Positions 19,355 to 64,000 of a DNA stretch of 64,000 nucleotides are shown one piece after another. Numbering within the stretch: position 1 is the stretch's first letter; each line of letters starts with the position of its first letter. The stretch comes from Euglena gracilis. Taxonomy: Eukaryota. The notes beneath the pieces were generated by a model that saw only the letters and a program-made list of their open reading frames with translations, searched no databases and was not told the origin of the DNA. The stretch is from the NCBI GenBank assembly GCA_039621445.1, contig CP154954.1:38301703-38365702 (forward strand), given 5' to 3'. A program made the translations under genes and the position numbers.

Positions 19355-19525
19355 CAGGGCTGACGTTTTTTTTGTTTTAAAACAAAGCAAAAAAACTTTC
19401 ATGAATAAAAAGCAGTTTAAAAACGGTTTTTTGTTTCAAAAAAGAGTGTTTTTTTAAATAAAACACTGCAAATAGGAAAAAAACTTGTTTAAAAACAATT
19501 GTTTTAAAACAATGCCTCAGCCCTG
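19355..19525. mobile_element. hAT-like MITE inserted in the satellite, 8-bp TSD gttaggtc
   Basis: Perfect TSD; copy of 10112-10284. Confidence 0.9.
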
Positions 19526-19787
19526 GTTAGGTCGACTTGCACCCGAAAAGGGGTTGGCAGATAAAAGGGGTTGGCAGATAAAAGGGGTTGATTTTGTTAA
19601 TGAAAGGGATAGGGTTAGGTCGACTTGCACCCGAGAAGGGGTTGGCAGATAAAAGGGGTTTATTTTGTTAATGAAAGGGATAGGGTTAGGTCGACTTGCA
19701 CCCGAAAAAGGGTTGGCAGATAAAAGGGGTTAGGTCGACTTGCACCCGAAAAAGGGTTGGCAGATAAAAGGGGTTTATTTTGTTAAT

Positions 19788-33470: not shown

Positions 33471-33559
33471 GTATGTCTTGTTTACATTCCACGCATAATG
33501 GTCAGTCGCTGCAGTGTGATCCGAGTGATGCCAGTCGGTGCAGAGTGATCCGATACGGG

Positions 33560-42500: not shown

Positions 42501-45500
42501 GAAATTTTGGTAATTTTTAAGTGTAATTCGGGGCGGGGGCGGGGGGTGGGGGGGCGTGATTTTTTGGGGCCAGATTGCCTCAATGGCAGGTAATTGGGGG
42601 GGTGCCAAAAAGTGCGACCAGCCCCCGGGACCAGGTCGGCTGGGTTCCCCACCCCCAAAAACCCCACTGTCACCGGAACCACTGCTGTTAAAACACCCCG
42701 CAATAGCGAAATTTTGGCCATTTTTCAGTATAATTCGGGGCGGGGGCGGGGGGTGGGGGGGGGCGTGATTTTTTGGGGCCAGATTGCCTCAATGCCAGGA
42801 ATTTGGGGGGTGCCAAAAAGTGCGACCAGGCCCCCGGGACCAGGCCAGCTGGGTTCCCCGCCCCCAAAAACCCCACTGTCACCGGAACCACTGCTGGTAA
42901 AACACCCCGCAATAGCGAAATTTTGGTAATTTTTAAGTGTAATTCGGGGCGGGGGCGGGGGGTGGGGGGGCGTGATTTTTTGGGGCCAGATTGCCTCAAT
43001 GCCAGGAATTTGGGGGGTGCCAAAAAGTGCGACCAGCCCCCGGGACCAGGTCGGCTGGGTTCCCCACCGCCAAAAACCCCACTGTCACCGGAACCACTGC
43101 TGGTAAAACACCCCGCAAAAGCGAAATTTTGGTAATTTTTAAGTGTAATTCGGGGCGGGGGCGGGGGGTGGGGGGGGCGTGATTTTTTGGGGCCAGATTG
43201 CCTCAATGCCAGGAATTTGGGGGGTGCCAAAAAGTGCGACCAGCCCCCGGGACCAGGCCAGCTGGGTTCCCCGCCCCCAAAAACCCCACTGTCACCGGAA
43301 CCACTGCTGTTAAAACACCCCGCAATAGCGAAATTTTGGTAATTTTTAAGTGTAATTCGGGGCGGTGGGGTGTGGGGGTGGGTGGGGTGGGGGGGGGGGG
43401 GGCGTGGGGGGGGGGGGGGGGGGGGGGGGGGGTGGGGGGGGGGCGTGATTTTTTGGGGCCAGATTGCCTCAATGGCAGGAATTTGGGGGGTGCCAAAAAG
43501 TGCGACCAGCCCCCGGGACCAGGTCGGCTGGGTTCCCCACCGCCAAAAACCCCACTGTCACCGGAACCACTGCTGGTAAAACACCCCGCAATAGCGAAAT
43601 TTTGGTAATTTTTAAGTGTAATACGGAGCGGGGGCGGGGGGTGGGGGGGGGCGTGATTTTTTGGGGCCAGATTGCCTCAATGGCAGGAATTTGGGGGGTG
43701 CCAAAAAGTGCGACCAGCCCCCGGGACCAGGTCGGCTGGGTTCCCCACCCCCAAAAACCCCACTGTCACCGGAACCACTGCTGGTAAAACACCCCGCAAT
43801 AGCGAAATTTTGGCCATTTTTAAGTGTAATTCGGGGCGGGGCCGGGAAGTGGAGGAGGGGCGTGATTTTTTGGGGCCAGATTGCCTCAATGGCAGGAATT
43901 TGGGGGGTGCCAAAAAGTGCGACCAGCCCCCGGGACCAGGTCGGCTGGGTTCCCCACCCCCAAAAACCCCACTGTCACCGGAACCACTGCTGGTAAAACA
44001 CCCCGCAATAGCAAAATTTTGGCCATTTTTAAGTGTAATTCGGGGCGGGGCCGGGAAGTGGAGGGGGGGCGTGATTTTTTGGGGCCAGATTGCCTCAATG
44101 CCAGGAAATTGGGGGGTGCCAAAAAGTGCGACCAGGCCCCCAGGAGCAGGTCGGCTGGGTTCCCCACCCCCAAAAATCCCACTGTCACCGGAACCACTGC
44201 TGGTAAAGCACCCCGCAATAGCGAAATTTTGGTTATTTTTAAGCGTAATTCGGGGGGGGGGGGGGGGGGGCGTGATTTTTTGGGGCCAGATTGCCTCAAT
44301 GCCAGGAATTTGGGGGGTGCCAAAAAGTGCGACCAGCCCCCGGGACCAGGTCGGCTGGGTTCCCCACCCCCAACCCCACTGTCACCGGAACCACTGCTGG
44401 TAAAACACCCCGCAATAGCGAAATTTTGGTAATTTTTAAGTGTAATTCGGGGCGGGGGCGGGGGGTGGGGGGGGGCGTGATTTTTTGGGGCCAGATTGCC
44501 TCAATGCCAGGAATTTGGGGGGTGCCAAAAAGTGCGACCAGCCCCCGGGACCAGGTCGGCTGGGTTCCCCACCCCCAAAAACCCCACTGTCACCGGAACC
44601 ACTGCTGGTAAAACACCCCGCAATAGCGAAATTTTGGTAATTTTTAAGTGTAATTTGGGGCGGGGGCGGGGGGTGGAGGGGGCGTGATTTTTTGGGGCCA
44701 GATTGCCTCAATGCCAGGAATTTGGGGGGTGCCAAAAAGTGCGACCAGCCCCCGGGACCAGGTCGGCTGGGTTCCCCGCCCCCAAAAACCCCACTGTCAC
44801 CGGAACCACTGCTGGTAAAACACCCCGCAATAGCGAAATTTTGGTAATTTTTAAGTGTAATTCGGGGCGGGGGCGGGGGGTGGGGGGGGGCGTGATTTTT
44901 TGGGGCCAGATTCCCTCAATGCCAGGAATTTGGGGGGTGCCAAAAAGTGCGACCAGCCCCCGGGACCAGGTCGGCTGGGTTCCCCGCCCCCAAAAACCCC
45001 ACTGTCACCGGAACCACTGCTGGTAAAACACCCCGCAATAGCGAAATTTTGGTAATTTTTAAGTGTAATTCGGGGCGGGGGCGGGGGTGGGGGGGGGCGT
45101 GATTTTTTGGGGCCAGATTGCCTCAATGGCAGGAATTTGGGGGGTGCCAAAAGGTGCGACCAGCCCCCGGGACCAGGTCGGCTGGGTTCCCCGCCCCCAA
45201 AAACCCCACTGTCACCGGAACCACTGCTGGTAAAACACCCCGCAATAGCGAAATTTTAGTAGTTTTTAAGTGTAATTCGGGGCGGGGGGGGGGGGGGGCG
45301 TGATTTTTGGGGGCCAGATTGCCTCAATGCCAGGAATTTGGGGGGTGCCAAAAGGTGCGACCAGCCCCCGGGACCAGGTCGGCTGGGTTCCCCGCCCCCA
45401 AAAACCCCACTGTCACCGGAACCACTGCTGTTAAAACACCCCGCAATAGCGAAATTTTGGTAATTTTTAAGTGTAATTCGGGGCGGGGGGTGGGGGGGGG

Positions 45501-48500
45501 CGTGATTTTTTGGGGCCAGATTGCCTCAATGGCAGGAATTTGGGGGGTGCCAAAAGTGCGACCAGCCCCCGGGACCAGGTCGGCTGGGTTCCCCGCCCCC
45601 AAAAACCCCACTGTCACCGGAACCACTGCTGTTAAAACACCCCGCAATAGCGAAATTTTGGCCATTTTTAAGTGTAATTCGGGGCGGGGGCGGGGGGTGG
45701 GGGGGGGGGCGTGATTTTTTGGGGCCAGATTGCCTCAATGCCAGGAATTTGGGGGGTGCCAAAAAGTGCGACCAGGCCCCCGGGACCAGGCCAGCTGGGT
45801 TCCCCGCCCCCAAAAACCCCACTGTCACCGGAACCACTGCTGTTAAAACACCCCGCAATAGCGAAATTTTGGTAATTTTTAAGTGTATTTCAGGGCGGGG
45901 GACAGGATGGGGGGGGGGCGTGATTTTTTGGGGCCAGATTGCCTCACTGCCAGGAATTTGGGGGGTGCCAAAAAGTGCGACCAGCCCCCGGGACCAGGTC
46001 GGCTGGGTTCCCCACCGCCAAAAACCCCACTGTCACCGGAACCACTGCTGGTAAAACACCCCGCAAAAGCGAAATTTTGGTAATTTTTAAGTGTAATTCG
46101 GGGCGGGGGCGGGGGGTGGGGGGGCGTGATTTTTTGGGGCCAGATTGCCTCAATGCCAGGAATTTGGGGGGTGCCAAAAAGTGCGACCAGCCCCCGGGAC
46201 CAGGCCAGCTGGGTTCCCCGCCCCCAAAAACCCCACTGTCACCGGAACCACTGCTGTTAAAACACCCCAAAAGCGAAATTTTGGTAATTTTTAAGTGTAA
46301 TTCGGGGCGGGGGCGGGGGGTGGGGGGGCGTGATTTTTTGGGGCCAGATTGCCTCAATGCCAGGAATTTGGGGGGTGCCAAAAAGTGCGACCAGCCCCCG
46401 GGACCAGGCCAGCTGGGTTCCCCGCCCCCAAAAACCCCACTGTCACCGGAACCACTGCTGGTAAAACACCCCGCAATAGCGAAATTTTGGTAATTTTTAA
46501 GTGTAATACGGAGCGGGGGCGGGGGGTGGGGGGGGGCGTGATTTTTTGGGGCCAGATTGCCTCAATGGCAGGAATTTGGGGGGTGCCAAAAAGTGCGACC
46601 AGCCCCCGGGACCAGGTCGGCTGGGTTCCCCACCCCCAAAAACCCCACTGTCACCGGAACCACTGCTGGTAAAACACCCCGCAATAGCAAAATTTTGGCC
46701 ATTTTTAAGTGTAATTCGGGGCGGGGCCGGGAAGTGGAGGGGGGGCGTGATTTTTTGGGGCCAGATTGCCTCAATGCCAGGAATTTGGGGGGTGCCAAAA
46801 AGTGCGACCAGCCCCCGGGAGCAGGTCGGCTGGGTTCCCCACCCCCAAAAATCCCACTGTCACCGGAACCACTGCTGGTAAAGCACCCCGCAATAGCGAA
46901 ATTTTGGTTATTTTTAAGCGTAATTCGGGGCGGGGGCGGGGGGTGGAGGGGGCGTGATTTTTTGGGGCCAGATTGCCTCAATGCCAGGAATTTGGGGGGT
47001 GCCAAAAAGTGCGACCAGCCCCCGGGACCAGGTCGGCTGGGTTCCCCACCCCCAAAAACCCCACTGTCACCGGAACCACTGCTGGTAAAACACCCCGCAA
47101 TAGCGAAATTTTGGTAATATCTAAGTGTAATTCGGGGCGGGGGCGGGGGGTGGAGGGGGCGTGATTTTTCGGGGCCAGATTGCCTCAATGCCAGGAATTT
47201 GGGGGGTGCCAAAAAGTGCGACCAGCCCCCGGGACCAGGTCGGCTGGGTTCCCCACCCCCAAAAACCCCACTGTCACCGGAACCACTGCTGGTAAAACAC
47301 CCCGCAATAGCGAAATTTTGGTAATATCTAAGTGTAATTCGGGGCGGGGGCGGGGGGTGGAGGGGGCGTGATTTTTCGGGGCCAGATTGCCTCAATGCCA
47401 GGAATTTGGGGGGTGCCAAAAAGTGCGACCAGCCCCCGGGACCAGGTCGGCTGGGTTCCCCGCCCCCAAAAACCCCACTGTCACCGGAACCACTGCTGGT
47501 AAAACACCCCGCAATAGCGAAATTTTGGTTATTTTTAAGTGTAATTCGGGGCGGGGGCGGGGGGTGGAGGGGGCGTGATTTTTTGGGGCCAGATTGCCTC
47601 AATGCCAGGAATTTGGGGGGTGCCAAAAAGTGCGACCAGCCCCCGGGACCAGGTCGGCTGGGTTCCCCACCCCCAACCCCACTGTCACCGGAACCACTGC
47701 TGGTAAAACACCCCGCAATAGCGAAATTTTGGTAATATCTAAGTGTAATTCGGGGCGGGGGCGGGGGGTGGAGGGGGCGTGATTTTTCGGGGCCAGATTG
47801 CCTCAATGCCAGGAATTTGGGGGGTGCCAAAAAGTGCGACCAGCCCCCGGGACCAGGTCGGCTGGGTTCCCCGCCCCCAAAAACCCCACTGTCACCGGAA
47901 CCACTGCTGGTAAAACACCCCGCAATAGCGAAATTTTGGTAATTTTTAAGTGTAATTCGGGGCGGGGGCGGGGGGTGGGGGGGGCGTGATTTTTTGGGGC
48001 CAGATTGCCTCAATGCCAGGAATTTGGGGGGTGCCAAAAAGTGCGACCAGCCCCCGGGACCAGGTCGGCTGGGTTCCCCACCCCCAACCCCACTGTCACC
48101 GGAACCACTGCTGGTAAAACACCCCGCAATAGCGAAATTTTGGTAATTTTTAAGTGTAATTCGGGGCGGGGGCGGGGGGTGGAGGGGGCGTGATTTTTCG
48201 GGGCCAGATTGCCTCAATGCCAGGAATTTGGGGGGTGCCAAAAAGTGCGACCAGCCCCCGGGACCAGGTCGGCTGGGTTCCCCGCCCCCAAAAACCCCAC
48301 TGTCACCGGAACCACTGCTGGTAAAACACCCCGCAATAGCGAAATTTTGGTTATTTTTAAGTGTAATTCGGGGCGGGGGCGGGGGGGCGGGATGTTTTGG
48401 GGTCAGATTGCCTCAATGCCAGCAAGTTGGTGGGTGCCAAAAAGTGCGACCAGCCCCCAGGACCAGGTCGGCTGGGTTCCCCACCCCCAAAAACCCCACT

Positions 48501-51500
48501 GTCACCGGAACCACTGCTGGTAAAACACCCCGCAATAGCGAAATTTTGGTAATATCTAAGTGTAATTCGGGGCGGGGGCGGGGGGTGGAGGGGGCGTGAT
48601 TTTTCGGGGCCAGATTGCCTCAATGCCAGGAATTTGGGGGGTGCCAAAAAGTGCGACCAGCCCCCGGGACCAGGTCGGCTGGGTTCCCCGCCCCCAAAAA
48701 CCCCACTGTCACCGGAACCACTGCTGGTAAAACACCCCGCAATAGCGAAATTTTGGTAATTTTTAAGTGTAATTCGGGGCGGGGGCTGGGGGGGGGCGTG
48801 ATTTTTTGGGGCCAGATTCCCTCAATGCCAGGAATTTGGGGGGTGCCAAAAAGTGCGACCAGCCCCCGGGACCAGGTCGGCTGGGTTCCCCACCCCCAAA
48901 AACCCCACTGTCACCGGAACCACTGCTGGTAAAACACCCCGCAATAGCGAAATTTTGGCCATTTTTAAGTGTAATTCGGGGCGGGGGCGGGGGTGGGGGG
49001 GGGCGTGATTTTTTGGGGCCAGATTGCCTCAATGCCAGGAAATTGGGGGGTGCCAAAAAGTGCGACCAGCCCCCGGGACCAGGTCGGCTGGGTTCCCCGC
49101 CCCCAAAAACCCCACTGTCACCGGAACCACTGCTGGTAAAACACCCCACAATAGTGAAATTTTGGTAATTTTTAAGTGTAATTCGGGGCGGGGGTTGGGG
49201 GGGGGCGTGATTTTTTGGGGCCAGATTGCCTCAATGGCAGGAATTTGGGGGGTGCCAAAAGGTGCGACCAGCCCCCGGGACCAGGTCGGCTGGGTTCCCC
49301 GCCCCCAAAAACCCCACTGTCACCGGAACCACTGCTGGTAAAACACCCCGCAATAGCGAAATTTTAGTAGTTTTTAAGTGTAATTCGGGGCGGGTGGGGG
49401 GGGCGTGATTTTTGGGGGCCAGATTGCCTCAATGCCAGGAATTTGGGGGGTGCCAAAAGGTGCGACCAGCCCCCGGGACCAGGTCGGCTGGGTTCCCCGC
49501 CCCCAAAAACCCCACTGTCACCGGAACCACTGCTGTTAAAACACCCCGCAATAGCGAAATTTTGGTAATTTTTAAGTGTAATTCGGGGCGGGGGGTGGGG
49601 GGGGGCGTGATTTTTTGGGGCCAGATTGCCTCAATGGCAGGAATTTGGGGGGTGCCAAAAAGTGCGACCAGCCCCCGGGACCAGGTCGGCTGGGTTCCCC
49701 GCCCCCAAAAACCCCACTGTCACCGGAACCACTGCTGTTAAAACACCCCGCAATAGCGAAATTTTGGCCATTTTTAAGTGTAATTCGGGGCGGGGGCGGG
49801 GGGTGGGGGGGGGCGTGATTTTTTGGGGCCAGATTGCCTCAATGCCAGGAATTTGGGGGGTGCCAAAAAGTGCGACCAGGCCCCCGGGACCAGGCCAGCT
49901 GGGTTCCCCACCCCCAAAAACCCCACTGTCACCGGAACCACTGCTGTTAAAACACCCCGCAATAGCGAAATTTTGGTAATTTTTAAGTGTAATTCGGGGC
50001 GGGGGCGGGGGGTGGGGGGGCGTGATTTTTTGGGGCCAGATTGCCTCAATGCCAGGAATTTGGGGGGTGCCAAAAAGTGCGACCAGCCCCCGGGACCAGG
50101 TCGGCTGGGTTCCCCACCGCCAAAAACCCCACTGTCACCGGAACCACTGCTGGTAAAACACCCCGCAAAAGCGAAATTTTGGTAATTTTTAAGTGTAATT
50201 CGGGGCGGGGGCGTGGGGTGGGGGGGCGTGATTTTTTGGGGCCAGATTGCCTCAATGCCAGGAATTTGGGGGGTGCCAAAAAGTGCGACCAGCCCCCGGG
50301 ACCAGGTCGGCTGGGTTCCCCGCCCCCAAAAACCCCACTGTCACCGGAACCACTGCTGTTAAAACACCCCGCAATAGCGAAATTTTGGTAATTTTTAAGT
50401 GTAATTCGGGGCGGGGGCGGGGGGTGGGGGGGGCGTGATTTTTTTGGGGCCAGATTGCCTCAATGCCAGGAATTTGGGGGGTGCCAAAAAGTGCGACCAG
50501 CCCCCGGGACCAGGTCGGCTGGGTTCCCCACCGCCAAAAACCCCACTGTCACCGGAACCACTGCTGGTAAAACACCCCGCAATAGCGAAATTTTGGTAAT
50601 TTTTAAGTGTAATTCGGGGCGGGGGCGGGGGGTGGGGGGGGCGTGATTTTTTGGGGCCAGATTGCCTCAATGCCAGGAATTTGGGGGTGCCAAAAAGTGC
50701 GACCAGCCCCCGGGACCAGGTCGGCTGGGTTCCCCACCCCCAAAAACCCCACTGTCACCGGAACCACTGCTGGTAAAACACCCCGCAATAGCGAAATTTT
50801 GGTTATTTTTAAGTGTAATTCGGGGCGGGGGCGGGGGGTGGAGGGGGCGTGATTTTTTGGGGCCAGATTGCCTCAATGCCAGGAATTTGGGGGGTGCCAA
50901 AAAGTGCGACCAGCCCCCAGGACCAGGTCGGCTGGGTTCCCCACCCCCAAAAACCCCACTGTCACCGGAACCACTGCTGGTAAAACACCCCGCAATAGCG
51001 AAATTTTGGCCATTTTTAAGTGTAATTCGGGGCGGGGGCGGGGGGTGGAGGGGGCGTGATTTTTTGGGGCCAGATTGCCTCAATGCCAGGAATTTGGGGG
51101 GTGCCAAAAAGTGCGACCAGCCCCCAGGACCAGGTCGGCTGGGTTCCCCACCCCCAAAAACCCCACTGTCACCGGAACCACTGCTGGTAAAACACCCCGC
51201 AATAGCGAAATTTTGGTAATTTTTAAGTGTAATTCGGGGCGGGGGCGGGGGGTGGGGGGGCGTGATTTTTTGGGGCCAGATTGCCTCAATGCCAGGAATT
51301 TGGGGGGTGCCAAAAAGTGCGACCAGCCCCCGGGACCAGGTCGGCTGGGTTCCCCACCCCCAAAAACCCCACTGTCACCGGAACCACTGCTGGTAAAACA
51401 CCCCGCAATAGCGAAATTTTGGTAATTTTTAAGTGTAATTCGGGGCGGGGGCGGGGGGTGGGGGGGGAGTTGGGGGGGGTGTGATTTTTTGGGGCCAGAT

Positions 51501-53480
51501 TGCCTCAATGCCAGGAATTTGGGGGGTGCCAAAAAGTGCGACCAGCCCCCGGGACCAGGTCGGCTGGGTTCCCCACCCCCAAAAACCCCACTGTCACCGG
51601 AACCACTGCTGGTAAAACACCCCGCAATAGCGAAATTTTGGTAATTTTTAAGTGTAATTCGGGGCGGGGGCGGGGGTGGGGGGGGCGTGATTTTTTGGGG
51701 CCAGATTGCCTCAATGCCAGGAAATTGGGGGGTGCCAAAAAGTGCGACCAGCCCCCGGGACCAGGTCGGCTGGGTTCCCCGCCCCCAAAAACCCCACTGT
51801 CACCGGAACCACTGCTGGTAAAACACCCCGCAATAGCGAAATTTTGGTAATTTTTAAGTGTAATTCGGGGCGGGGGCGGGTGGGGGGGGCGTGATTTTTG
51901 GGGGCCAGATTGCCTCAATGCCAGGAATTAGGGGGGTGGCAAAAAGTGCGACCAGCCCCCGGGACCAGGTCGGCTGGGTTCCCCGCCCCCAAAAACCCCA
52001 CTGTCACCGGAACCACTGCTGGTAAAACACCCCGCAATAGTGAAATTTTGGTAATTTTTAAGTGTAATTCGGGGCGGGGGGTGGGGGGGGGCGTGATTTT
52101 TTGGGGCCAGATTGCCTCAATGGCAGGAATTTGGGGGGTGCCAAAAGGTGCGACCAGCCCCCGGGACCAGGTCGGGTGGGTTCCCCGCCCCCAAAAACCC
52201 CACTGTCACCGGAACCACTGCTGGTAAAACACCCCGCAATAGCGAAATTTTAGTAGTTTTTAAGTGTAATTCGGGGCGGGTGGGGGGGGCGTGATTTTTG
52301 GGGGCCAGATTGCCTCAATGCCAGGAATTAGGGGGGTGCCAAAAAGTGCGACCAGCCCCCGCTACCAGGTCGGCTGGGTTCCCCACCTCCAAAAACCCCA
52401 CTGTCACTGGAACCACTGCTGGTAAAACACCCCGCAATAGCGAAATTTTGGTAATTTTTAAGTGTAATACGGAGCGGGGGCGGGGGGTGGGGGGGGCGTG
52501 ATTTTTTGGGGCCAGATTGCCTCAATGCCAGGAAATTGGGGGGTGCCCAAAAGTGCGACCAGCCCCCGGGAGCAGGTCGGCTGGGTTCCCCGCCCCCAAA
52601 AACCCCACTGTCACCGGAACCACTGCCGGCAAAACACCGATGGTAAAACACCCCCGCAATAGCGAAATTTTGGTTATTTTTAAGTGTAATTCGGGGCGGG
52701 GGGGGGGGGGGGGTGGGGGGGGTGATTTTTCGGGGCCAGATTGCCTCAATGCCACGAAATTGGGGGGTGCCAAAAAGTGCGACCAGCCCCCGGGACCAGG
52801 TCGGCTGGGTTCCCCACCCCCAAAAACCCCACTGTCTCCGGAACCACTGCTGGTAAAACACCCCGCAATAGCGAAATTTTGGCCATTTTTCAGTATAATT
52901 CGGGGCGGGGGCGGGGGGTGGGGGGGCGTGATTTTTTGGGGCCAGATTGCCTCAATGGCAGGAATTTGGGGGGTGCCAAAAAGTGCGACCAGCCCCCGGG
53001 ACCAGGTCGGCTGGGTTCCCCACCCCCAAAAACCCCACTGTCACCGGAACCACTGCTGGTAAAACACCCCGCAATAGCGAAATTTTGGCCATTTTTCAGT
53101 ATAATTCGGGGCGGGGGCGGGGGGTGGGGGGGGCGTGATTTTTTGGGGCCAGATTGCCTCAATGGCAGGAATTTGGGGGGTGCCAAAGAGTGCGACCAGC
53201 CCCCGGGACCAGGTCGGCTGGGTTCCCCGCCCCCAAAAACCCCACTGTCACCGGAACCACTGAGGGTAAAACACCCCGCAATTGTGTAAGTTTGGCCATT
53301 TTTCAGTATAATTCGGGGCGGGGGGGTGGGGGGGGCGTGAGTTTTTGGGAATTGGGGGGTGCCAAAAAGTGCGACCGTGCCCCCGGGACCAGGTCAGCTG
53401 GGTTCCCCACCCCCATTGTCACCGGTAAAACACCTTACAATAGGGATTTTTGACAGTTTTTCAGTATAATTCGGGGTGGG
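33560..53480. repeat. Satellite of about 207-bp units, roughly 95 copies, G-run rich, inside a predicted GT-AG intron (33471-53867)
   Basis: Unit gggccagattgcctcaatgccaggaattt...taattcggggcgggggcgggggg repeated head to tail; degenerate at both edges. Confidence 0.95.
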
Positions 53481-53867
53481 GGTTCGGGGCAGGCTTCTTT
53501 TTAATTCACCTGACCCCCCCCTCCCCCGGGGGAGGGGGGTGGGTGGGTGGGTCTGGGCCGGACCCCCTGGGGGGTGGGGGGTCTGCGCCGGGTGTACGTT
53601 TTTGGCGCAAAGCGCCGAAAAACGTTGACAATTGCCTTTAACGCGCCTGATTTTGGGGGAGGGATCCCCGCCCCCCGGGGGGTCCACCCTGGGGACCCCC
53701 TTTCCCCCGGGGGGTCATAAAAAGAAGCCTGTTGGGGGGCGCGTGTTTTTTCGGGGCAGATTCAAAAAGTGCGACCAGCCTCCGGGACCAGTTCAGCTGC
53801 GTGCTTCTCAGCGTGCGTGTGGGAAAGCCTTCGTGCTCTGCCACCATCTCAATCCAAATCTCCACAG

Positions 53868-56800
53868 GTCCCGCCACCCGCCGCCTACGTCGCCCCCGCC
53901 GTGCTCCTGCAGGAAGCGGACGAGAAGGCAGCGGAGCACGAGCGGGATCGCCACGCAGGCCCCGGTGGCCAGGAAAATATGGGCCATCAAAGAAATACCA
54001 GGGGTGCACACAATCATTTGCCCCCCTGTGCTTTCGCGACTCCGCTATGACCCCCCTCCCGTCACAGACACAGCGTCCTGGCGCAAAGCATAAGGCCGAA
54101 AACCCTTGGACCCAAAAGTGGCCAAAAATCAGCCAAAAATTTTTTGGGCAAAGAATTGCCGAAATTTCACAAAAGGGTTTCCCGCACCTCACCCCCGCCT
54201 TTGCAGTCTCTTCACCAATCCAGGGGGGATCACTGACTGGGTTTTGTCCCTGTCCACCTCCCTCCAGAAGCAGTCATCGCAAAGGTGACCCGGCCGCATA
54301 TTATTTCTGCCATTTTTTCCCCGTTCCAGATTCCAGAGCACCTGACCCCGGGGGGGGGGGACTGGCTGGATTTCCAAACTGCCTGGTTCTTGGTGACTGC
54401 CTGGTTTTCGGAAGAGTGGACCCCTGGGGGAGGGGTCGGCCGATGGTTGCCCACCCCTCTGTCCTCTTCTCCTCCGGGGTGGGAGGTTGGACAGGGGTGA
54501 GAATATTTTTCCCTGGCATTGGATTCTTGAAGCCCCCTCCCCTCATTTGGCAGTTTTACATTACTCTGCGGGGGGTCGACCCCCCCCCCCCATACTTGAA
54601 TAACACCCCCCCTCTCCGGGGCCGATTTCGAGCGCCCAAATATCACCCCCCTAATTTCTTTTGGTTTTCCATGTAAAAATAACACCCCCCCCCAAATTAC
54701 CCCCCCCCCCCGGGGCCCAGGGTGCCCAAGTAACACAAGGGGGGGGGTGTTATTTGGGGGGGGGGTTATTTGGATGGCAGCCATATTCTAAATGGCCCCC
54801 CTGGTCACTCTAAATGGCCCCCCCTGGCATTTTTTCGTTAATGATGGAGTAGGTTTAGGTGCGCGACTTAGGCTTAGGGTTAGGCCTAACTTGTACACCG
54901 AACACCCATCTATAAGTTAGGCCTAACCCTAAGCCTAAGTCGCGCACCTAACCCTACTCCATCATTAACACAAAAAAACTATTTTGACCCCCCTGGTCAC
55001 TCTAAATGGCCCCCCAGGGGGGGGCATTTAGAGTATGGCTGCCATTTGGATATCCAGGGTAGGGTGTGTACATTGCGGCCGTGTCTTGCTTGTGTCTGCT
55101 TCATGGCCAGGGTGGGGGATCATCATCCCAAAACCCGGCGTTTGTTCGGATTCCACGCGTGGTGCTTTCATTCTGCAGTTTCTGTTTATCACAAACCCCC
55201 CCGGAAAGTGCCACCAGCAGCCACCACCACATCTGCATCTGTCCCAAAATCAGAAAAATGGGTTTTTTTTGCGCCAAACCAGAAATTTTTTTCAGCACAA
55301 AACTCCCATGGTTTTTAAAGAAGGTCAATGGCTTCCCCCCAGAGGTTTTTGTTCTGAGGGTCCCACACCACGCAGAGGCGTTGGAAAGACGCCTGCATTG
55401 CAATTGTGGTGAAGCCCCCCCCCATCAGTCCAGCACGGCCTGGGGGCAACACCAGCTCCATCCGCCCCAAAACTTGCTGGCCCGCGCGCGCCGCGCTGCC
55501 AACCCACTGCGTGGGATTCGGCAGCTGCTTGAGCAGGCGGTTTTTTTTTGTGGTGTTTATCGAAACAACAAAACAAAACAAACAAAAAGCAGCCTGCCGC
55601 CGAATATTGGTGGCTAATCGAGACCCCCGCGGAGAGGACAACCAGGGCAGAACGGGAGGCCAACCACACCACCGTATTTCCGGGAACACCAATTTTCGAC
55701 CCCAAAGTTTTTTTCCGGCGCCAAAGGGGCGGGGAAAAAATTGTCATGTACGTTATCTAATAAGGTCTATCAATGTTATCTGATAAGAAATCTGTGAAAT
55801 TGCCGTGGTGGGGTGGGGGGTCAAACACCCGCCTCCCGGGTGGACCAGGCCTTCCCGTTCTGCCCTGGGGACGGCGAAGGAGATCCAGGTCCGCCACGCG
55901 GTGGCGGACCCGGACCTCTGTGCCCGCTGCCGCCCACGCCCTTCCTTAAATGTGTGCCCTTCTGTTAAATGTGCGTTGTGGTGACCCAGACAGTGCAAAG
56001 ATAATTTAATTACAAATATCTGTCAGAAGTGCCATTTTCGGTTGGAAGGAAACTGACTTTTGGGGACGGGGGATTTCCGTGGGGGGGGGAAGCCCCCCCC
56101 CACCCCTGCTTGTCAAGGACCTCATTCCCATGCATGTTAACACAATGACAAAGTAACGAAGGGCGTGGGGCCACCACCGTCGGCTGGGGATGGTGCAGGC
56201 GGAGGTCGCCGGGCGCAGCGTGCCACTGTGCCCTGCCTGCCGCTTCGCCACGGTGTGTTCTGCCTTGCCCTTTGCTTCTTCCGAATCTCTTTTCATTTTC
56301 ATTGTGCACCCCTGTCCCCTGGAATTCTGGATTCAACCTGGACAGTTCTCTTCAAAAGCCACCTGTGGGGGACAGGGGTTTTTTTGGTCGTGGACCCCGG
56401 GGGCAGGGTTCGATATAAGGAGGGCGTACATGGTTTAGGTGGGGGGTGTCCCCCCCACCCCCCCCCCTCCTGGCCCGCAGGGGGGGGTCAGGACCACCCC
56501 CCCCCCACCTGCAAGGGGGGTCCGGACCGACCCTCGGGGGGGGGTACCCGGGACCCCCCCCCCAAAAAGGGGCAATTTTTTCCTCCGGCGCTTTGCGCCG
56601 AATTTTTTTTTGCATTTTTGGCCAATTTTTGCCCAAAAAGTGCCCAAAATGGCACTTTTGGTCGTCTTGGGGGGTCAAAAATTTTCGGCCCGGCGCTTTG
56701 CGCTGGGCCGAAAATCGGTCACCCTGACCGCGCCACTGTTTAGGTGGGGGGGTGTCCCCCCCACCCCCCCCCCCCTCCTGGCCCGCAGGGGGGGGGGCCG

Positions 56801-59404
56801 GACCCCCCCCCCCTCCTCTCCTTATATCGAACCCTGCCCGGTGGGGGGGGGTTGGGAAGGGTTTGATATAAGGAGGCGTACATGGTTCAGGTGGGGGGGT
56901 GTCCCCCCCCCTCCTGGCCTGCAGGGGGGTCCGGACCACCCCCCCCTCCTCTCCTTATATCGAACCCTGGGGTAGGGTGGGTGGGTCCAGCCGAGCCCCC
57001 CCCCCCCCGGGGGGGTCCCACCGGAGGGGGGTGGGATATGCTTTTCGGCGCTGAAGGCGCCGAAAGTGCTATTTTTAGCACTTTCATGGTGTCCAGGCCC
57101 AGTGCTAACTCAGAAGACCCCGTGCCACGGGACTGTGTGGAGGTCGGTGCGTTTGGGGTTTGTCCGGGTTCCAAATGGATCGGGGGTGTGCTGGATCTTC
57201 ACTCAACTGGCAGTAACAAAGTGTCAAGCGTTAGTTTTAGCAAGGGGAGGGAAGGCAAGGGGAACGCAAATGTTTTTTTTGCATTATTTGTGTTTTTCTA
57301 TTTTGATAAAATTTGTGTTTTTATGTCTGTTGTTGTTGTTGTTGTTATTGTTGTTGTTGCATTTTGTTTTTTTTTCCGTCCCGATTTTCTAGTTTCAAAA
57401 AGGGTTTGGGCAAAGGTAAGGGTCAAGGTCTTTTTGACAATGAAAAATTGCTCGTTTTGCCCTCGATTTTCCCCCGAGACCAAAAATTCTGTCGACCTTT
57501 TGTCATTTGCCCGATGGAGAAGTTTTTCCCCTGTGTTGAGTGAACAGTGGTCTTGCGGGAGGGGGGGGTGCGGGGAAAGAGTGGTTAGACCCCCCGGGGG
57601 GAGGGTGGGTCCAGACCCCCCCTTCAGACCGAGGGGTCTGGGACCCCCGGAAACCCAGAAAGAATAAAAAATGGGTGGTGCATTGTTTGGCTGATTTTTC
57701 AAAAAAAATATGTGCGAAAACTCGATTTTTTGGTTTTTTTCGTTGCCAGAAATTTTTTTGCACAATCCAACCCCCCCCAACACTCATTTAATACCCTGCC
57801 CGAGGGATGGGGGCAGGCTTCTTTTTAAGTCAGCAGACCCCCCCGGGGGGGGGAGGGAGGGTGGGTGCCAGACATTTATTCAGTGTGGTATACCAACGTT
57901 GTCATTTTGTGGTTCACCGTGGACACCGAGAGTTTTTTTGTGGTTCACCTGTTGACACCAAAAAAGAATTTGTGGTTCACACATCTTTTGTGAGCCACAC
58001 TAAATGAATGTCTGGTGGGTGGGGGGGTCCGGGGCCGGACCCCCCGGGGGGTGGGTCCCGCGCCGGGTATACCTTTTCGGCGCGAAGCACCGAAAATTTT
58101 TGAAAATTGCCTTTAACGGGCCCGATTTTGGGGTCCCCCCCGGGGTCCCGCGCCACCCTGGGTGGGTGGGGGACCCCCCTGGATGGGGGTCCGGACCCTC
58201 CCAGGCTGTGTTTCAGATTTACAACCTCAAATGCCCCTGCCTCTCACAGTTCGAGAGCGCGCTGCTGGCGCGTGAGGCAGCGAGGGAACGACCGCCCCGC
58301 GCACCGCGAACGGTATGTCATTGCTTGCGCCCCACATCCGCCTGATCTTTGCTCACGTCTCCACAAATTTCTCCGGAATGAATTAAAAAAACTGATAAAA
58401 TTCAAAAGAAGACAGATTTGGTGAAATGCAGCTTTCTAAAGGCGATAACAATGGCGAGGGATGCACATGGGTTTCTGTTTGATTCTTTGCAATGCGCACC
58501 CCCCGGGGGGGGGGGCTATTGGCAGGCAGGGGTAGGGCATTTTCGACCCCTCTGGAGGGGAGTCGGGGTTTGGGGTGGGTTGGCGCCACAGCACACCCCC
58601 TGACGCCGAATGGCCCAAAAATGGCCTCCAAAAAATGACCTGGCTGGTAGGCTCCGAGAGGCACAATACCCCCCCCCCCCAGGTTGATGAAAAGAAGCCT
58701 GATCCTCTGACGTTGCCCCCCAAATGTTTTGCATTTTGTGGGTTGACTCGCAGAACATCGTACATTTTTTTACCGCATTGGTTGCCATGACAGAATTTCG
58801 CTCATATTCTCTAAACATGCGGCTGGTGCTGGTGCCCCCCATGTCCATTGCTGCACAGGGGACATTTTCGCTCTGGAGGGGAGTCGGGGTTGGGGTGGGT
58901 TGGCGCCACCACCCCCCCCCCCGAATGGCCCCTCCCAAAAAACCTCCAATCCCCCCCCCCCCCAAACCCCCTGACGTTGCCCCCCAAATGTTTTGCATTT
59001 TGGGTTGACTCGCAGAACAAACACCCACCCCCCCCAAAATTATCAAAAAACCACTTCCCCTCTCACGCCCCCCTGCTGCTCGCCCCCATCGTCGCCGCGG
59101 GCTGGACGCACAGGGCCGAGTGGCGTCGGCATTTGGGGTCAGAGAAACGGGAAGGTGAAATTTGGGAGCACAACCCGGAGTGGAGCCGGCTTCCTGGGTC
59201 AGGTTTGAATTACTGCCAGCGTTGCGTTTCACTCCCATTCAGAGGAATTTGGCTGAAACATTGTAAGCCTGGTTTTTTTTTTTTGTTCTTGGGGGTTAGA
59301 TTGGTGCTGTTGACCCCCAGCCAAATCGAGTCAACATGTTTTGTTGAGATGTTGAATATTTTCCTTTTTTCATCATCATCATCATCGTCATCATCATTAT
59401 TGTC

Positions 59405-59439
<35 letters not shown>

Positions 59440-59478
59440 CATCATCATCATCATCATCATCATCATTATTATTGTTGC

Positions 59479-59532
<54 letters not shown>

Positions 59533-59593
59533 TGCTATTATTATCATTATCATCATCATCATCATTATTCTTATTCTTATTCTTCTTCTTCTT

Positions 59594-59624
<31 letters not shown>

Positions 59625-59769
59625 TTATCATCATCATCATCATCATCATCATTATTATTATTATTACCATCATCATCATCATCATCATTATTATTATTAC
59701 CATCATCATCATCATCATCATCATTATTATTATTACCATCATCATCATCATCATCATTATTATTATTAC

Positions 59770-59806
<37 letters not shown>

Positions 59807-62273
59807 GTCATCATCATCATCATCAGGTGCATTGACCTACCAATGGGCCCTGCTGTTGATCCTGCCGACCACCGACAGCCGCCTGGCCAACGCGCTGGCA
59901 TGGCTGGCCAGGGTTGTATGGGAAGCTCCGCAGACATGACGCAGGTGGCAGGGGGTCCCCCCCTAGGGGGGTAAGGTGGCAGGGGGGTCCCCCCACCCCC
60001 GTCCCCCCGGTTTCGGAAGGGGGTCCCCCACCCACCCCCCTCCCCCTCCTCTGCAGGGGCAAATAAAAATCTTCCGGTGTGCATTTTTGGACCCTCTTGA
60101 AGCTCGATATGAAATTTTGGCAAAACGGCCAAAATTGGTCGAAAAATGGCTGTAACTTGGGCCAGGAGGGGAGTTGAGGGGAAATCAAAATGGCATTTCA
60201 AGGCTTCAATTTAGGTATCTGACATTTTGTCCACCATTTTTGAGGAATTTCAGAAGAATTGATGTTTTTGACCCAAACAGGGCCAAATTTTTCGGCGACT
60301 GAATACTGGAGGTAGGGGGGTCCCCCCTCCCCCCCCCCCTCCCCCCCCCCCCAGTTTTGGAAGGGGAGCCCCCCCCCCTCGAGATTCCCATACAAGCCTG
60401 CGGCTGGCGGTGGTCTCCACGTACAGCTCGCTGTACGTGGACTGCCTGCGGCCGCGGCTGCGGTGGGTCGCCGGGCTGTACCCGTGCACCGCAAGCGGGG
60501 GGCCCTTTGCGGTTGCATTTCAAGGGGCGGAGGGTTGCCTTCAAGTTCATTCGCAAACCCCCAACGGATTTGTCTCTCATCCAAATCCAACCTCCCCCCC
60601 CCCCCCCCCCTGGCAGAGGGCCCTCCGCCGCCAGCCGTCGCCGCCATCGTCCATGCCATCGACCGCCGCCTGCGCGAACAAGTCGAGGGCAACGGCTACG
60701 GCGGGCCACACCCTGGCTCACCCCCCCCCCCCCGTTGGCTTGGCTTGGGGTCTCCCTGGTCCCTCCCCAGGGATGGATTGGAAGCATTTTGGTTTGAAGG
60801 TGGGTGAGGGGGCCCCTTCCTGGAGGTTGGGGGGGTCCGGACCCCCCCTGCTTTATGACAAAAATATTTCTTTTGGCGCGCCGGAAAATGAACAAAAATG
60901 CCCCTTTTCCTCACTTTTGAGCATATTGCGCATTTTTGGGGTGCTTTCCGCAGCTAAAGTGTTCACAATTTTCAAGGAATTCATTTTCAAAGAAAAATCA
61001 AGGGATTTTCAACAATTTTGGTCTGGCCTCCAAGACACTCTGGACCCCCCCCCCCGGTTGGTAAAAAGCAGCCTGGTCCCCTCCCTCCCCCTGTCCCCTT
61101 TGAACCGGGGCGTGGCGGCACAACGCCGCCTACGCCGCCCTCCGCATGGCCCACACGTGGGCCATCATGGTGGGCGCCGTGGGCGACCTCGCCGTCCACG
61201 CCCTGCTGCTGGGGCCAGGCCTGTCCCCCCCTTTTTTCTATGGGCGGATGAGCGATGTTCCAAAAGTGCCAGGAATCACTTTTTTTCCCGAAGTCGACCC
61301 GTTTCGGGCAAAATACGGCCACTTTTCGGTCATGGATTTTCAAAAAAATTTCTCGGCTGTGCCGGGACGGGATTTTTTTTTTTTTTTTTTTTGCTTAAGG
61401 ACCGCCCTGGGTCCAACGGATGCCTCTCGGCTCACAATTTGAAGAAAGTTCTCCAAAGTTCTCCAAACCTCCCGGGCCGTTTGTTTCCCACCCCCACCCC
61501 AAGTGGGTTCCCGGGGGGGCCGGCCTGCGGCCAAGTGCCCGCCCCCTTCATCAACCCCACCACGCCCCTCCAGCGGTGGAGGGACGCGCAGCCGCCGCCG
61601 CCGCCCGGGCCCGTGGCGAAGGCGAAGGCGGTGGTGCGGGAGATCCGGCGCCGGCTGTGGCCTGCCGGGCAGGCCCTTCCTGAAGGGCACCCGCCCCTCC
61701 CCCTGCCTTTCTGCATTGCAAGTCCCACGCAGACAATCACTCACTGATCGGTATCCCATCCCGACCAGGTTTTTTTCAGCTTTGGACCTCCTGGGGGGGG
61801 GGGGGGGGAGGGGGGGGGGGGTCCAGCCAAGCCCCCCATGGGGGGGGGTCCCCCCAGGGGGAGTGGGATGCCCTTTTCGGCGCTGAAGGTGCCGAAATTT
61901 TTTGAAAAAGGTGCTTTTTTAGCATTTTTCGCGATTTTTCGGCCATTTTCGGTGGGTCCCCTGGGACCCCCCTGGGGTGGGTGGGGAGATTGACTGGTTT
62001 TTTGGGTGGATGTGACCCCTGGGATCAGTGTAAAGAACTTTGTGCAGTCCCCCCCTCAACACGGTCTCTTTGAAGAAGCGACAGGGTGCCAAGCCCCCCT
62101 CTTCTGGTGCAAATCCCAGGCACCCCTCCCCCGCCATCTTTGGCAACGGCCTGTCGCTGCCCGGCCTGCGGAGCCGCCTGCGCCGCCAGCCGCGCCGGCT
62201 GTCGCGCCAGCTGCGCTGCCAGCCGAGCTGCCGGCCGCGCCGGCCGCTGAAGCAGCAGCGGTGGCGCAACCCC
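53868..62273 (+). CDS. Multi-exon 3' part of the same unknown gene (CxxC...CxxC motif, hydrophobic segments, Pro/Ala-rich tail); runs on beyond the last exon identified
   Basis: Predicted exons 53868-53966, 54258-54284, 55456-55530, 55602-55639, 55873-55931, 56173-56252, 57114-57146, 58250-58312, about 59070-59107, 59858-59905, 60406-60492, 60618-about 60703, about 61108-61212, 61533-61666, 62159-62273. They join to VPPPAAYVAPAVLLQEADEKAAEHERDRHAGPG-LPPEAVIAK-LHPPQNLLARARRAANPLRGIRQLL-EYWWLIETPAERT-AKEIQVRHAVADPDLCARCH-HRRLGMVQAEVAGRSVPLCPACRFAT-KTPCHGTVWRS-FESALLAREAARERPPRAPRT...WTILPTTDSRLANALAWLAVVSTYSSLYVDCLRPRLRWVAGLYPCTAGPPPPAVAAIVHAIDRRLREQ...; GC3-rich codons. Junctions near 58313-59080 and 60703-61108 are unresolved. 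Confidence 0.7.
54784..55036. mobile_element. Palindromic MITE with a telomere-like internal hairpin
   Basis: TIR t(a)ttctaaatggccccc / ggggcatttagagta; arms gttaatgatggagtagg...ttagggttaggcctaactt / aagttaggcctaaccctaag...cctactccatcattaac. Confidence 0.75.
56404..56836. mobile_element. hAT-like MITE (TIR cagggttcgatataagg); related copies at about 56859-56969 and from 63886
   Basis: TIR ccttatatcgaaccctg at the right end; TSD cccggggg/cccggtgg. Confidence 0.75.
59371..59825. repeat. Compound trinucleotide microsatellite (CAT/TAT/CTT)n
   Basis: Direct reading; lies inside the predicted intron 59108-59857. Confidence 0.95.
59909..60400 (+). mobile_element. hAT-like MITE in coding sequence, forming predicted intron 59906-60405
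   Basis: TIR cagggttgtatgggaa...ttcccatacaagcctg; TSD tggctggc/cggctggc; same family as 29708-30222; removal restores ...ALAWLAVVSTY. Confidence 0.85.
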
Positions 62274-64000
62274 AGCCAGGGCACATAAAACATGGCACAC
62301 CAAGCGCACAACAAAATACAATTTCTTTCCAGGGGTTTTTTTCATCGTGGACTCCAGGGGGGGGGGGTAGGGTGGGTGGGTGGGGCCCCGGGACCCGGGG
62401 GGGGGGGCCCGCCGGAGGGGGCTGGGATGTACTTTTCAGCGCTTTTGGCGCAGAAATTTTTTGAAAAAGTGCTATTTTTTTAGCACTTTTCGCGATTTTC
62501 GGCCATTTTTTTTGTGGGTCCCCCGACCCCCCCCCCCCAGGGAGGCCCCTCCAGGGGTTGGTGGGCGGGGGACCTCCCCCCGGTCTTAAGAAAAACCCCT
62601 GCTCCTTTCTAAATGAATGGGGAACAGGGAATTTCTTAAGGGCCCCCCCGGGGGGGTCCAGCCCAGACAATTGCTTAAGCACTGTCCCACCCCCCCCCCC
62701 CCGGGGGGGGGGGTGACTGGTTTTTTCAGAGTGACTGACTGGTTTTGGGCCCGGACCCCCTCCCCCCCGGGGGGGGTCGGCCAGGAGTGGGCAAAAGTGG
62801 CTTGAGTGACCCCAGCGCCGAAGGCGCCGGAAAATTTTTTTTGACCTAAAATGGCCTAAAGTGACTGGAAAGTGGCCGTTTTTCTGAGTGGCCGACCCCC
62901 CCCGGGGGGGGGGGGTAGTGACTGGCTGGTTTTTTGAAAATGAGTGACTGACTGGTTTTTAAAAAAGTGGAGTGACCCCCTCCCCCCCCCCCCCCCCCCC
63001 GGGGGTCGGTAAGCAATTGTATGGTCCAGCCTCCGGCTGGCAAAAAAGGCTGCTGGCTGGATTTGAGCTGCTGGCTGGAACGACCCCCCCCCCGGGGGGG
63101 GGGGGGGGGGTGGGGGGTCCGGGACTGGAGGGGACTGGGCTGGGCTGGGTCGAGGAAAAACAAAATTTTCTAACACATTTTTGTCATTTTAGACGTTTTG
63201 ATGGGTGGAGCTAGATCAAGGCTGGGGGGCTGTGATGGAGGGCTGTGATGAGGAGAAAAAAAGCAAGGATAAGTGAGCTGGGCAGCCCAGTTGGCTGGCC
63301 CGCCTGCGGTTGGCTGGCCCGGCCTCCAGTTGGGCTGGACCCAGTTTTATTTTACTCGACCCCCAGGAGGGGGGCTCCCAGCCCGAATTTGGGCTGCTGG
63401 CTGGATTTGAGCTGCTGGCTGGCTGGACCCCCCCCCCCCGCGGGGGGTAGGGTACCCTCCGGCTTACAAAATTCCCTGATGGGGAAGGAGCAAAAAAAAA
63501 GACATTCAATGCATAACACATCCCATCTGGGGCTGGGGTTGAAAATCCATTTTTTCACTGAGGGCTTTCCAAAAGAGTTGCCAGAGCCCCCTGCTTCCCT
63601 GTCCAGGAAGTTTCTTCGCGTGAGTGATGAAGAATACTCGAAAACCAATGAAATTTTTACACGCAAAGTGAAAATTCAGCTCAAAAAACAAGAGAATGTT
63701 TTTTTGGAGATAATTAAGCATGGGGCGGTGTCTCTTTGGCTCGGGGCGGCTCACGGTTTTGATTTTTTTCCTCCTCGCCAGTGAACGTTTTTTGAGCCCG
63801 CCCAGCTTTGGCTTTGGTGGGGGATTGGCAATTTTCAGGTTGGGGCGCAGCTTAAGAAAATTTGATCCCATGGGGGGTTCCAGCCCAGGGTTCGATATAA
63901 GGAGGGCGCCCAGGGTTCAGGTGGGGGGTGTCCCCCCCCACCCCCCTCCTGGACCACCCTGCCAAGGGGGTCCGGACCAACCCTGGGGGGTTCCGGACCC

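Follow-up and report, generated by a model that had tools for sequence, protein, structure and literature searches.

The plus strand of a 64,000-nt stretch of the Euglena gracilis genome (GenBank assembly GCA_039621445.1, contig CP154954.1, positions 38,301,703 to 38,365,702 of the forward strand; hereafter the window, whose own coordinates are used below) probably carries the 3' part of a protein-coding gene with the two kinds of introns of a euglenid-type genome. An earlier sequence-only reading of this DNA had proposed seven stem-loop introns in it, numbered 1 to 7 here from 5' to 3', all obeying the rule nnnCAG...CTGnnnnn and each restoring the reading frame. Judged from the DNA, five or six of these seven stretches are probably genuine nonconventional introns. 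In such a gene, short exons with very GC-rich third positions would be parted by GT-AG introns and by nonconventional introns. The RNA ends of the latter would pair via CAG at +4 to +6 and CUG at -8 to -6 plus an extension of variable length, and the RNA would be cut 3 nt ahead of CAG and 5 nt past CTG, mostly between a pyrimidine and a purine (Y|R) and before a purine. Introns of this 3+5 type form a known class, the nonconventional introns of euglenids; the rule is rediscovered here and is not new.

The window is GC-rich and abounds in G or C homopolymer runs and repeats. Between 53.8 and 62.3 kb, short blocks with a strong three-base GC periodicity are observed on the plus strand (Table 1), and their frames were set independently, from GC at third positions (GC3) alone. 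In the 3' half of the gene GC3 reaches 0.83-1.00, and A/T-ending codons amount to 8/164 in blocks E8-E13. Because the blocks are parted by AT-richer or repeat-rich DNA with in-frame stops, the separators are read as introns. A gene on the minus strand was considered and ruled out, since in 4 of 14 blocks (a count that lists the last block in two alternative frames as well) the minus-strand frame of the GC-rich phase is interrupted by stops; the gene is thus placed on the plus strand.

Table 1. Exon blocks and candidate introns of the gene, in window coordinates
Feature	Coordinates	Strand	Remarks
Putative GT-AG intron, 20.4 kb	33471-53867	+	GTATGT...CCACAG; upstream of E1
Exon block E1	53868-53966	+	GC periodicity; GC1/2/3 0.94/0.52/0.82 in the frame of the sequence-only reading
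Candidate intron 1, weakly supported	53967-54257	+	GGC-CAG...CTG-TCCAC
Putative GT-AG intron	54285-55428	+	GTGACC...CATCAG; end-duplex z +0.59, no end pairing
Exon block E3	55429-55530	+	Frame ambiguous: GC3 0.76 (sequence-only reading) vs 0.79 (+1)
Candidate intron 2, 71-nt hairpin	55531-55601	+	GAG-CAG...CTG-CCGCC|G; Y|R on both sides; shuffle P 0.06
Exon E4, 38 nt	55602-55639	+	Best-GC3 frame (0.75) joins E5 in frame via intron 3
Candidate intron 3, MITE-like	55640-55872	+	Terminal inverted repeats of ~19 bp; well supported
Two coding blocks (E5, E5b)	~55873-55945 and ~56192-56252	+	GC periodicity; in-frame stops between them
Putative GT-AG intron	56253-57113	+	GTGTGT donor; CAG acceptor after C-rich tract; end-duplex z +0.67
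Short exons	57114-57146 and 58250-58312	+	Sit between three GT-AG introns
Putative GT-AG intron	57147-58249	+	GTGCGT donor; CAG acceptor after C-rich tract; end-duplex z +0.18
Putative GT-AG intron	58313-59015	+	GTATGT donor; CAG acceptor after C-rich tract; end-duplex z -0.53
Exon block E8	59061-59107	+	GC3 0.93; minus-strand frame with a stop; 5' limit uncertain (59016 or later)
Candidate intron 4	59108-59857	+	GCA-CAGGGCC...GGCCCTG-CTGTT|G; Y|R on both sides; well supported
Control intron, candidate nonconventional	59906-60405	+	Terminal-inverted-repeat score 15; flank repeat 7/8; GC3-frame join; absent from the sequence-only list
Exon E10	60406-60492	+	GC3 1.00; A/T-ending codons 0/28
Candidate intron 5, CGG-CTG type	60493-60617	+	AAG-CGG...CTG-GCAGA|G; plausible but weak
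Exon E11	60618 to ~60705	+	GC3 0.83 vs 0.86 in rival frame
Exon E12	~61104 to 61212	+	GC3 1.00 over 34 codons
Candidate intron 6	61213-61532	+	GGC-CAGGCC...GGCCTG-CGGCC|A; well supported
Exon E13	61533-61666	+	GC3 0.98; A/T-ending codons 1/44
Candidate intron 7	61667-62158	+	GGG-CAGGCC...GGCCTG-TCGCT|G; Y|R on both sides; duplex p 0.016-0.017
Last coding block	62159-62288	+	Frame from 62160: A/T-ending 1/42; ends with TAA 62286-62288

All seven stretches start with N3-CAG and end with CTG-N5 where this had been proposed, with CGG in place of CAG in intron 5, as the CGG/CTG pairing given for it requires. Their lengths are 291, 71, 233, 750, 125, 320 and 492 nt. None combines a GT or GC start with an AG end (intron 4 opens with GC, yet its last two letters are TT), and a GT/GC donor with an AG acceptor behind a pyrimidine tract is found at the proposed boundaries of none of the seven; introns 1 and 7 overlap alternative GT-AG introns. 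The inverted repeats quoted for intron 3 (an arm of 19 nt), intron 4 (cagggcc/ggccctg) and introns 6 and 7 (caggcc/ggcctg) are present. Position +7 is G and position -9 is C in 7/7, position +3 is C in 3/7, and the downstream exon opens with a purine in six cases out of seven, the exon after intron 1 beginning with C.

Motifs of this kind are easily met by chance in this DNA. Local dinucleotide shuffles were run (2000 per site, search box of +-30 nt), and a same-phase rule-conforming pair arose with frequencies of 0.70, 0.53, 0.74, 0.71, 0.59, 0.63 and 0.76 for introns 1 to 7, the product of the seven being ~0.055; the real boxes hold 10 to 50 rule-conforming pairs each when N5 and N6 spacers are both allowed. 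A frame-preserving CAG/CTG pair alone is thus no evidence for an intron, and frame restoration says little by itself, as 53-76% of sites acquire a same-phase pair by chance. The restoration itself is clear for introns 3, 4 and 6; frames are ambiguous at introns 1, 2 and 5, and that of intron 7 is atypical. A same-phase pair with a helix extension at least as long as the observed one was obtained with P = 0.37 for intron 1, 0.06 for intron 2, 0.008 for intron 4, 0.016 for intron 5, 0.039 for intron 6 and 0.07 for intron 7, and in 0/2000 shuffles for intron 3; random boxes elsewhere in the window gave similar chance values. At introns 3, 4, 5 and 6, the longest helix of the box belongs to the candidate originally proposed, which lies in the GC3 frame. 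Strict alternatives within +-30 nt amount to 5 CAG donors and 8 CTG acceptors over the seven sites together, so that the choice open to the sequence-only reading was scant.

Frame preservation is blind to the way in which the 8 removed flank bases are split between the two ends, and it is there that Y|R is informative. Over the 14 junction sides, the 3+5 split was compared with the other eight ways of dividing these 8 nt. In agreement with the statement that most junctions are Y|R, this signature was observed at 11/14 sides for the 3+5 split, against 0-6/14 for the eight others; with a background YR frequency of 0.207, the binomial p for 11/14 is 5.7e-6. Decoy motif sites near the seven carry Y|R in 13/65 cases.

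The pairing of intron ends was measured on 30-nt ends, with the core fixed and the remainder shuffled. The resulting p values are 0.20, 0.024, 0, 0.078, 0.012, 0 and 0.016 for introns 1 to 7, so that five of the seven (introns 2, 3, 5, 6 and 7) fall below 0.05, compared with none of the five GT-AG introns of the locus used as controls (z -0.5 to +1.7). On this measure the persistence of terminal pairing, which had been asserted for the whole series, is supported for these five and less so for introns 1 (p 0.20) and 4 (p 0.078). Whole-intron folds gave z -3.5 for intron 2, -5.4 for intron 3 and +0.19 for intron 5. When 53800-62400 was scanned without bias for inverted repeats, pairings of G-runs with C-runs (578) dominated the outcome, and the scan was discarded as useless for intron ends. 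Combined, the Y|R offset, the end pairing and the periodicity frames argue that a gene with two splicing modes, as had been suggested, holds for most of the seven introns; introns 1 and 7 (the latter in its donor or frame) are doubtful as drawn.

Introns 3, 4 and 6 are well supported by these features as candidate nonconventional introns. The arms of intron 3 (55643-55661 and 55849-55867) differ by 2 mismatches, have a single partner and are unique in the window, where shuffles expect 0.03; 12 contiguous pairs lie beyond CAG/CTG, the fold is closed by the long arms, both sides are Y|R and the element fits the GC3 frames. Contig depth inside it rises to 342 at position 55686 from ~5 nearby, which is only a hint of further copies. 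Intron 4 is the top-helix candidate of its box and lies in the GC3 frame, with a duplex p of 0.01 (0.078 once the core is fixed). Within it lies a 456-nt trinucleotide microsatellite of TCA/TTA type (59370-59825; 150 copies, 83% matches). Intron 6 has the longest helix of only 3 purine-following candidates in its box and is in frame; its end duplex (-35.8, z -5.8) was equalled by 0/500 core-fixed shuffles. The control intron at 59906-60405 gave a duplex z of -4.9 and has a relative at 29708-29943 that is 79-86% identical.

Introns 2 and 5 are plausible on the same grounds. The whole of intron 2 folds into one stem-loop with CAG and CUG paired (minimum free energy -23.6), and 1/200 shuffles folded as well. 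Intron 5 is the top-helix candidate and in frame. Against it, the whole fold is no better than shuffles, the helix is a G-run:C-run pairing of the kind that is ubiquitous here, and the acceptor junction reads A|G; the frame of the exon that follows is not unique (GC3 0.83 vs 0.86).

Introns 1 and 7, and perhaps 2 and 5, could be chance CAG/CTG pairs near real intron ends, the true boundaries being GT-AG, hybrid or in another register, and we put this only slightly below an even chance. It draws on the frequency of same-phase pairs in shuffles and on the folding of intron 5. The Y|R count, high at the 3+5 offset alone, and the small number of strict alternatives speak against it, as do the single hairpin of intron 2 and, at intron 7, Y|R on both sides and the duplex p of 0.016. 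At intron 1 the helix extends 1 bp beyond the motif, the end duplex (p = 0.10-0.20) offers nothing above chance, and the downstream exon opens with C instead of a purine; by eye, 53965-54268 can be read as an alternative GT-AG intron that keeps the frame and ends in a long C-rich tract and CAG. Intron 1 may thus be conventional, a hybrid, or a pair of motifs met by chance.

At intron 7 the difficulty lies in the frame. Read from E13 across 61666|62159, an Ala/Pro-rich frame has 12/38 A/T-ending codons, compared with 8/164 over the six exons before the intron (Fisher p = 1.6e-5); for Ala and Pro codons alone the counts are 10/29 vs 4/49 (p = 0.0055). The gap is smaller when this frame is set beside the 5' exons (46/248, p = 0.081). 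The +1 frame after intron 7, with 1/42 A/T-ending codons, is GC3-rich back to ~62112, and its TAA at 62286-88 falls exactly where the GC-rich block ends. Three alternative junctions yield this frame (GC3 0.98) and reach the stop: 61663-62158 (CGG-CTG, same acceptor), 61667-62111 (CAG-CTG, lacking an extended helix) and a GT-AG intron at 61657-62119. Compared with them, the junction originally proposed has a superior helix, and both of its sides are Y|R. From the sequence, it is likely that the element is real and that its donor or frame was mis-assigned. A nested repeat occupies 61804-61897 within intron 7.

We consider that the gene probably ends in the stop-codon frame at 62286-88. The sequence-only reading had read through this point in another frame, in which the TAA, a likely stop codon, went unseen, and had started a further intron at 62274. 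If the stop-codon frame is right, that intron is not real. By eye it has no long partner helix, and downstream of it, up to 64000, the window shows no further block of coding type.

At the conventional introns named in the sequence-only reading, GT stands at 33471, 54285, 56253, 57147 and 58313. Downstream of every one of these donors a C-rich tract leads to a CAG acceptor (53867, 55428, 57113, 58249 and 59015). E1 directly follows the CAG acceptor of the putative intron 33471-53867, and its minus-strand frame of the same phase holds a stop. This intron consists almost wholly of a 207-bp tandem array (33565-53349; 95.5 copies, 92% matches), and the exon 5' of it is Pro/Thr-rich and closes in a hydrophobic stretch.

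Several observations weigh against a gene that is expressed and spliced as drawn. In the part of RNA run X11 that was covered (~5% of the run), depth was 0-0.4 in mostly unique exon bins, and 0/15 of the joints listed fit a proposed intron. Contigs of three sets (X1-X3) cross proposed sites unspliced at a depth of 2-8, like low-coverage DNA. The open frame 60272-61747 gave no match in a protein search; exon E13 gave 19 word candidates in a word-indexed protein search, none at E <= 1, and 0 matches at E <= 0.001 against 1.84 billion representatives; 0/10 exon peptides match a Pfam family. The 5' exons have moderate GC3 (46/248 A/T-ending codons) and ambiguous frames, and the gap between E11 and E12 (60706-61103) offers no in-frame junction by the GT-AG rule or by the published nonconventional code. 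Because neither RNA coverage nor a matching joint nor a homologue was found, splicing at this locus is inferred. For paralogues within the window, tblastn gave no match below E = 0.06. Contig depth is in the thousands to 100,000 over 56232-56939, 60126-60479 and 62604-63665, compared with 2-8 in unique parts; the very high-copy repeats there include poly-C/G runs and palindromic 'ttttcggcgc...gcgccgaaaa' elements.

The near-zero RNA depth, the failure of the search against representatives, of two word-indexed searches and of Pfam to find any relative or domain, the E11/E12 gap and the frame conflict at intron 7 would all suit a silent or decaying gene, whose elements would be never-spliced insertions in a pseudogene, the restored frames having no present function. 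We regard this as improbable. The exon blocks keep GC3 of 0.83-1.00 and no internal stops, against ~0.5 in adjacent intron, a contrast that would decay fast without selection; the RNA coverage is that of ~5% of one run; and orphan genes are common among euglenids. A live gene with two intron kinds is the likelier reading, with two gaps in its model. Between the blocks E5 and E5b, the search box holds 20 rule-conforming pairs, all equally weak, with no clear best among them. In the E11/E12 gap, an in-frame TGA at 61101-03 confines the acceptor to 61103-61112. As 61.2% of nonconventional introns carry the signature, according to the accessible text of Nomura et al. 2025 (PMC12501133), a gap without a rule-conforming junction is not alarming.

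The seven introns had further been presented as an age series of domesticated insertions, with target-site duplications (TSDs) degenerate or gone. The 8 nt before CAG were compared with the 8 nt after CTG (chance mean 2.04; P(>=5) = 0.042). Identities of 2, 2, 5, 2, 3, 0 and 3 of 8 for introns 1 to 7 agree with the statement about TSDs: intron 3 has 5/8, every mismatch being A/G, the other six have 0-3/8 (mean 2.0), and the control intron 59906-60405 has 7/8. Intron 3 alone of the seven has terminal inverted repeats of at least ~10 bp; in the other six, 4-7 contiguous pairs are found, the core counted in. No other copies of the bodies of introns 1 to 6 were found in the 64-kb window. An age series and selection on the terminal helix are consistent with these data, which fit a non-transposon origin of the short-helix introns equally well. 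The latter would then have arisen otherwise, for example from conventional introns that gained the CAG/CTG signal, or de novo, and no series of ages would exist. This we think unlikely, if less so than a silent gene. The chance-level identity of six of seven flank pairs and the single-copy bodies agree with it, and conversion between intron types is proposed in the accessible text of Milanowski 2014 (PMC3935182). Intermediates within the same gene (59906-60405, and intron 3 with its 19-bp inverted repeat) speak for transposons, as do the CAG...CTG-ended elements with 8-bp flank repeats that are common in the non-coding DNA of the window.

These elements give a measure of the flank length. When 14 non-redundant inverted-repeat elements of CAG...CTG type from the window are taken together, the identity of their flanks is highest at k = 8 (0.54), compared with 0.07-0.46 at other k from 2 to 12, and 8 of the 14 reach at least 5/8; several lie in GT-AG introns or past the stop codon. 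Since the peak is at 8 nt, the 3+5 nt removed equal the length of the TSD. On a tentative view, which we hold at somewhat worse than even odds, the 3+5 cut would be the RNA-level mirror of the 8-bp TSD made by CAG...CTG-ended transposons. Removal of the element with 3+5 nt would take away one duplicate copy and restore the pre-insertion message, and old introns would keep only the CAG/CTG core, a short extension and the Y|R read by the excision machinery. An 8-bp duplication with CAG-type ends is reminiscent, as we presume, of hAT-like elements. The accessible text of the 2024 Mobile DNA review (PMC11282704) contains zero occurrences of 'hAT'. Across the literature in its accessible text, direct repeats, 'slidable' introns and a MITE-like origin (miniature inverted-repeat transposable element) are mentioned, while neither a length of the repeat nor a superfamily is given; the figures or supplements of Nomura 2025 may already contain this equality.

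Four elements with CAG...CTG ends illustrate the non-coding set: 56404-56836, 57869-58014, 62330-62601 and 53490-53731, with flank repeats of 7/8, 7/8, 6/8 and 5/8 respectively. They have 11-20 matching terminal-inverted-repeat positions and lie in GT-AG introns or noncoding DNA. Further upstream, 29650-31905 holds tandem units of 335 bp (4.1 copies, 91% matches), every one with a GC3-rich exon-like piece and a copy of a CAGGGTTGCATGGG...CCCATGCG.CCCTG element of the same family as intron 59906-60405; from its sequence, the region looks like a tandem duplication of exon-plus-nonconventional-intron units. Next to it, in a GC-rich coding-like block, 31917-32154 is a 21-bp tandem repeat (11.3 copies, 99% matches) that would encode, by eye, a 7-residue Pro/Ala/Leu repeat, with periodicity at the block edges only. 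Long satellite arrays with periods of 71, 88 and 159 bp occur in 11855-23052; at 12-20 and 22-24 kb the GC skew is +0.25 to +0.59, and at 12-20 kb the GC content (0.44) is below that of the rest of the window.

The published descriptions, taken from their accessible texts, define the class to which the candidates would belong. Knock-in genetics in Euglena gave the code 5'-N3CDG-/-CH'GN5-6|R (Nomura et al. 2025, PNAS, PMC12501133): the 3-nt donor spacer tolerates no 1-nt insertion or deletion, the 5-nt acceptor spacer tolerates +1, CGG-CTG and CGG-CCG introns get spliced, a purine is preferred as the first acceptor-side exon base and C there gave unstable transcripts. Both intron types occur in many genes, and a MITE-like origin is suggested (same source). 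The candidates described here are alike in kind; they differ in that splicing is inferred from sequence, that intron 1 stands before C and that intron 7 has an odd frame. Milanowski 2014 (PMC3935182) gives the Y|R consensus, junction direct repeats and the MITE hypothesis, and the Mobile DNA review of 2024 (PMC11282704) states where CAG and CTG lie, reports Y|R at the two junctions as well as TSD-like repeats, and gives the same hypothesis, adding that nonconventional introns leave as full-length circular RNA, after conventional introns. CAG at +4 to +6, CTG at -8 to -6, Y|R and variable length are shared with that model; in contrast to it, six of our seven have no detectable junction repeat, and a MITE-grade inverted repeat is found in intron 3 only. 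A survey of E. gracilis (BMC Genomics 2024, PMC11170887) reports CCAGG at +3 to +7 and CCTG at -9 to -6, and for conventional introns a GTGTG donor and a C-rich pyrimidine tract. The GTGTG-like donors, the C-rich tract with CAG and the +7 G and -9 C of this locus match it, with no difference in kind.

MITEs and introner-type introns share terminal inverted repeats and flank duplications with intron 3 and with 59906-60405. Unlike introner-type introns, removal here would proceed without GT-AG signals supplied by the element, and the short-helix introns have no detectable repeat family in the window.

If complementary DNA confirms them, these introns would add more cases, in themselves unremarkable, to a splicing code defined genetically in 2025. 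The locus would offer, in one gene, a span from transposon-like introns to minimal-helix introns. It also indicates that junction calls in such DNA need offset-specific Y|R, extended end pairing and independent exon frames. The only point that may add to the field is that the 8-nt sum of the excised spacers equals an 8-bp target-site duplication.

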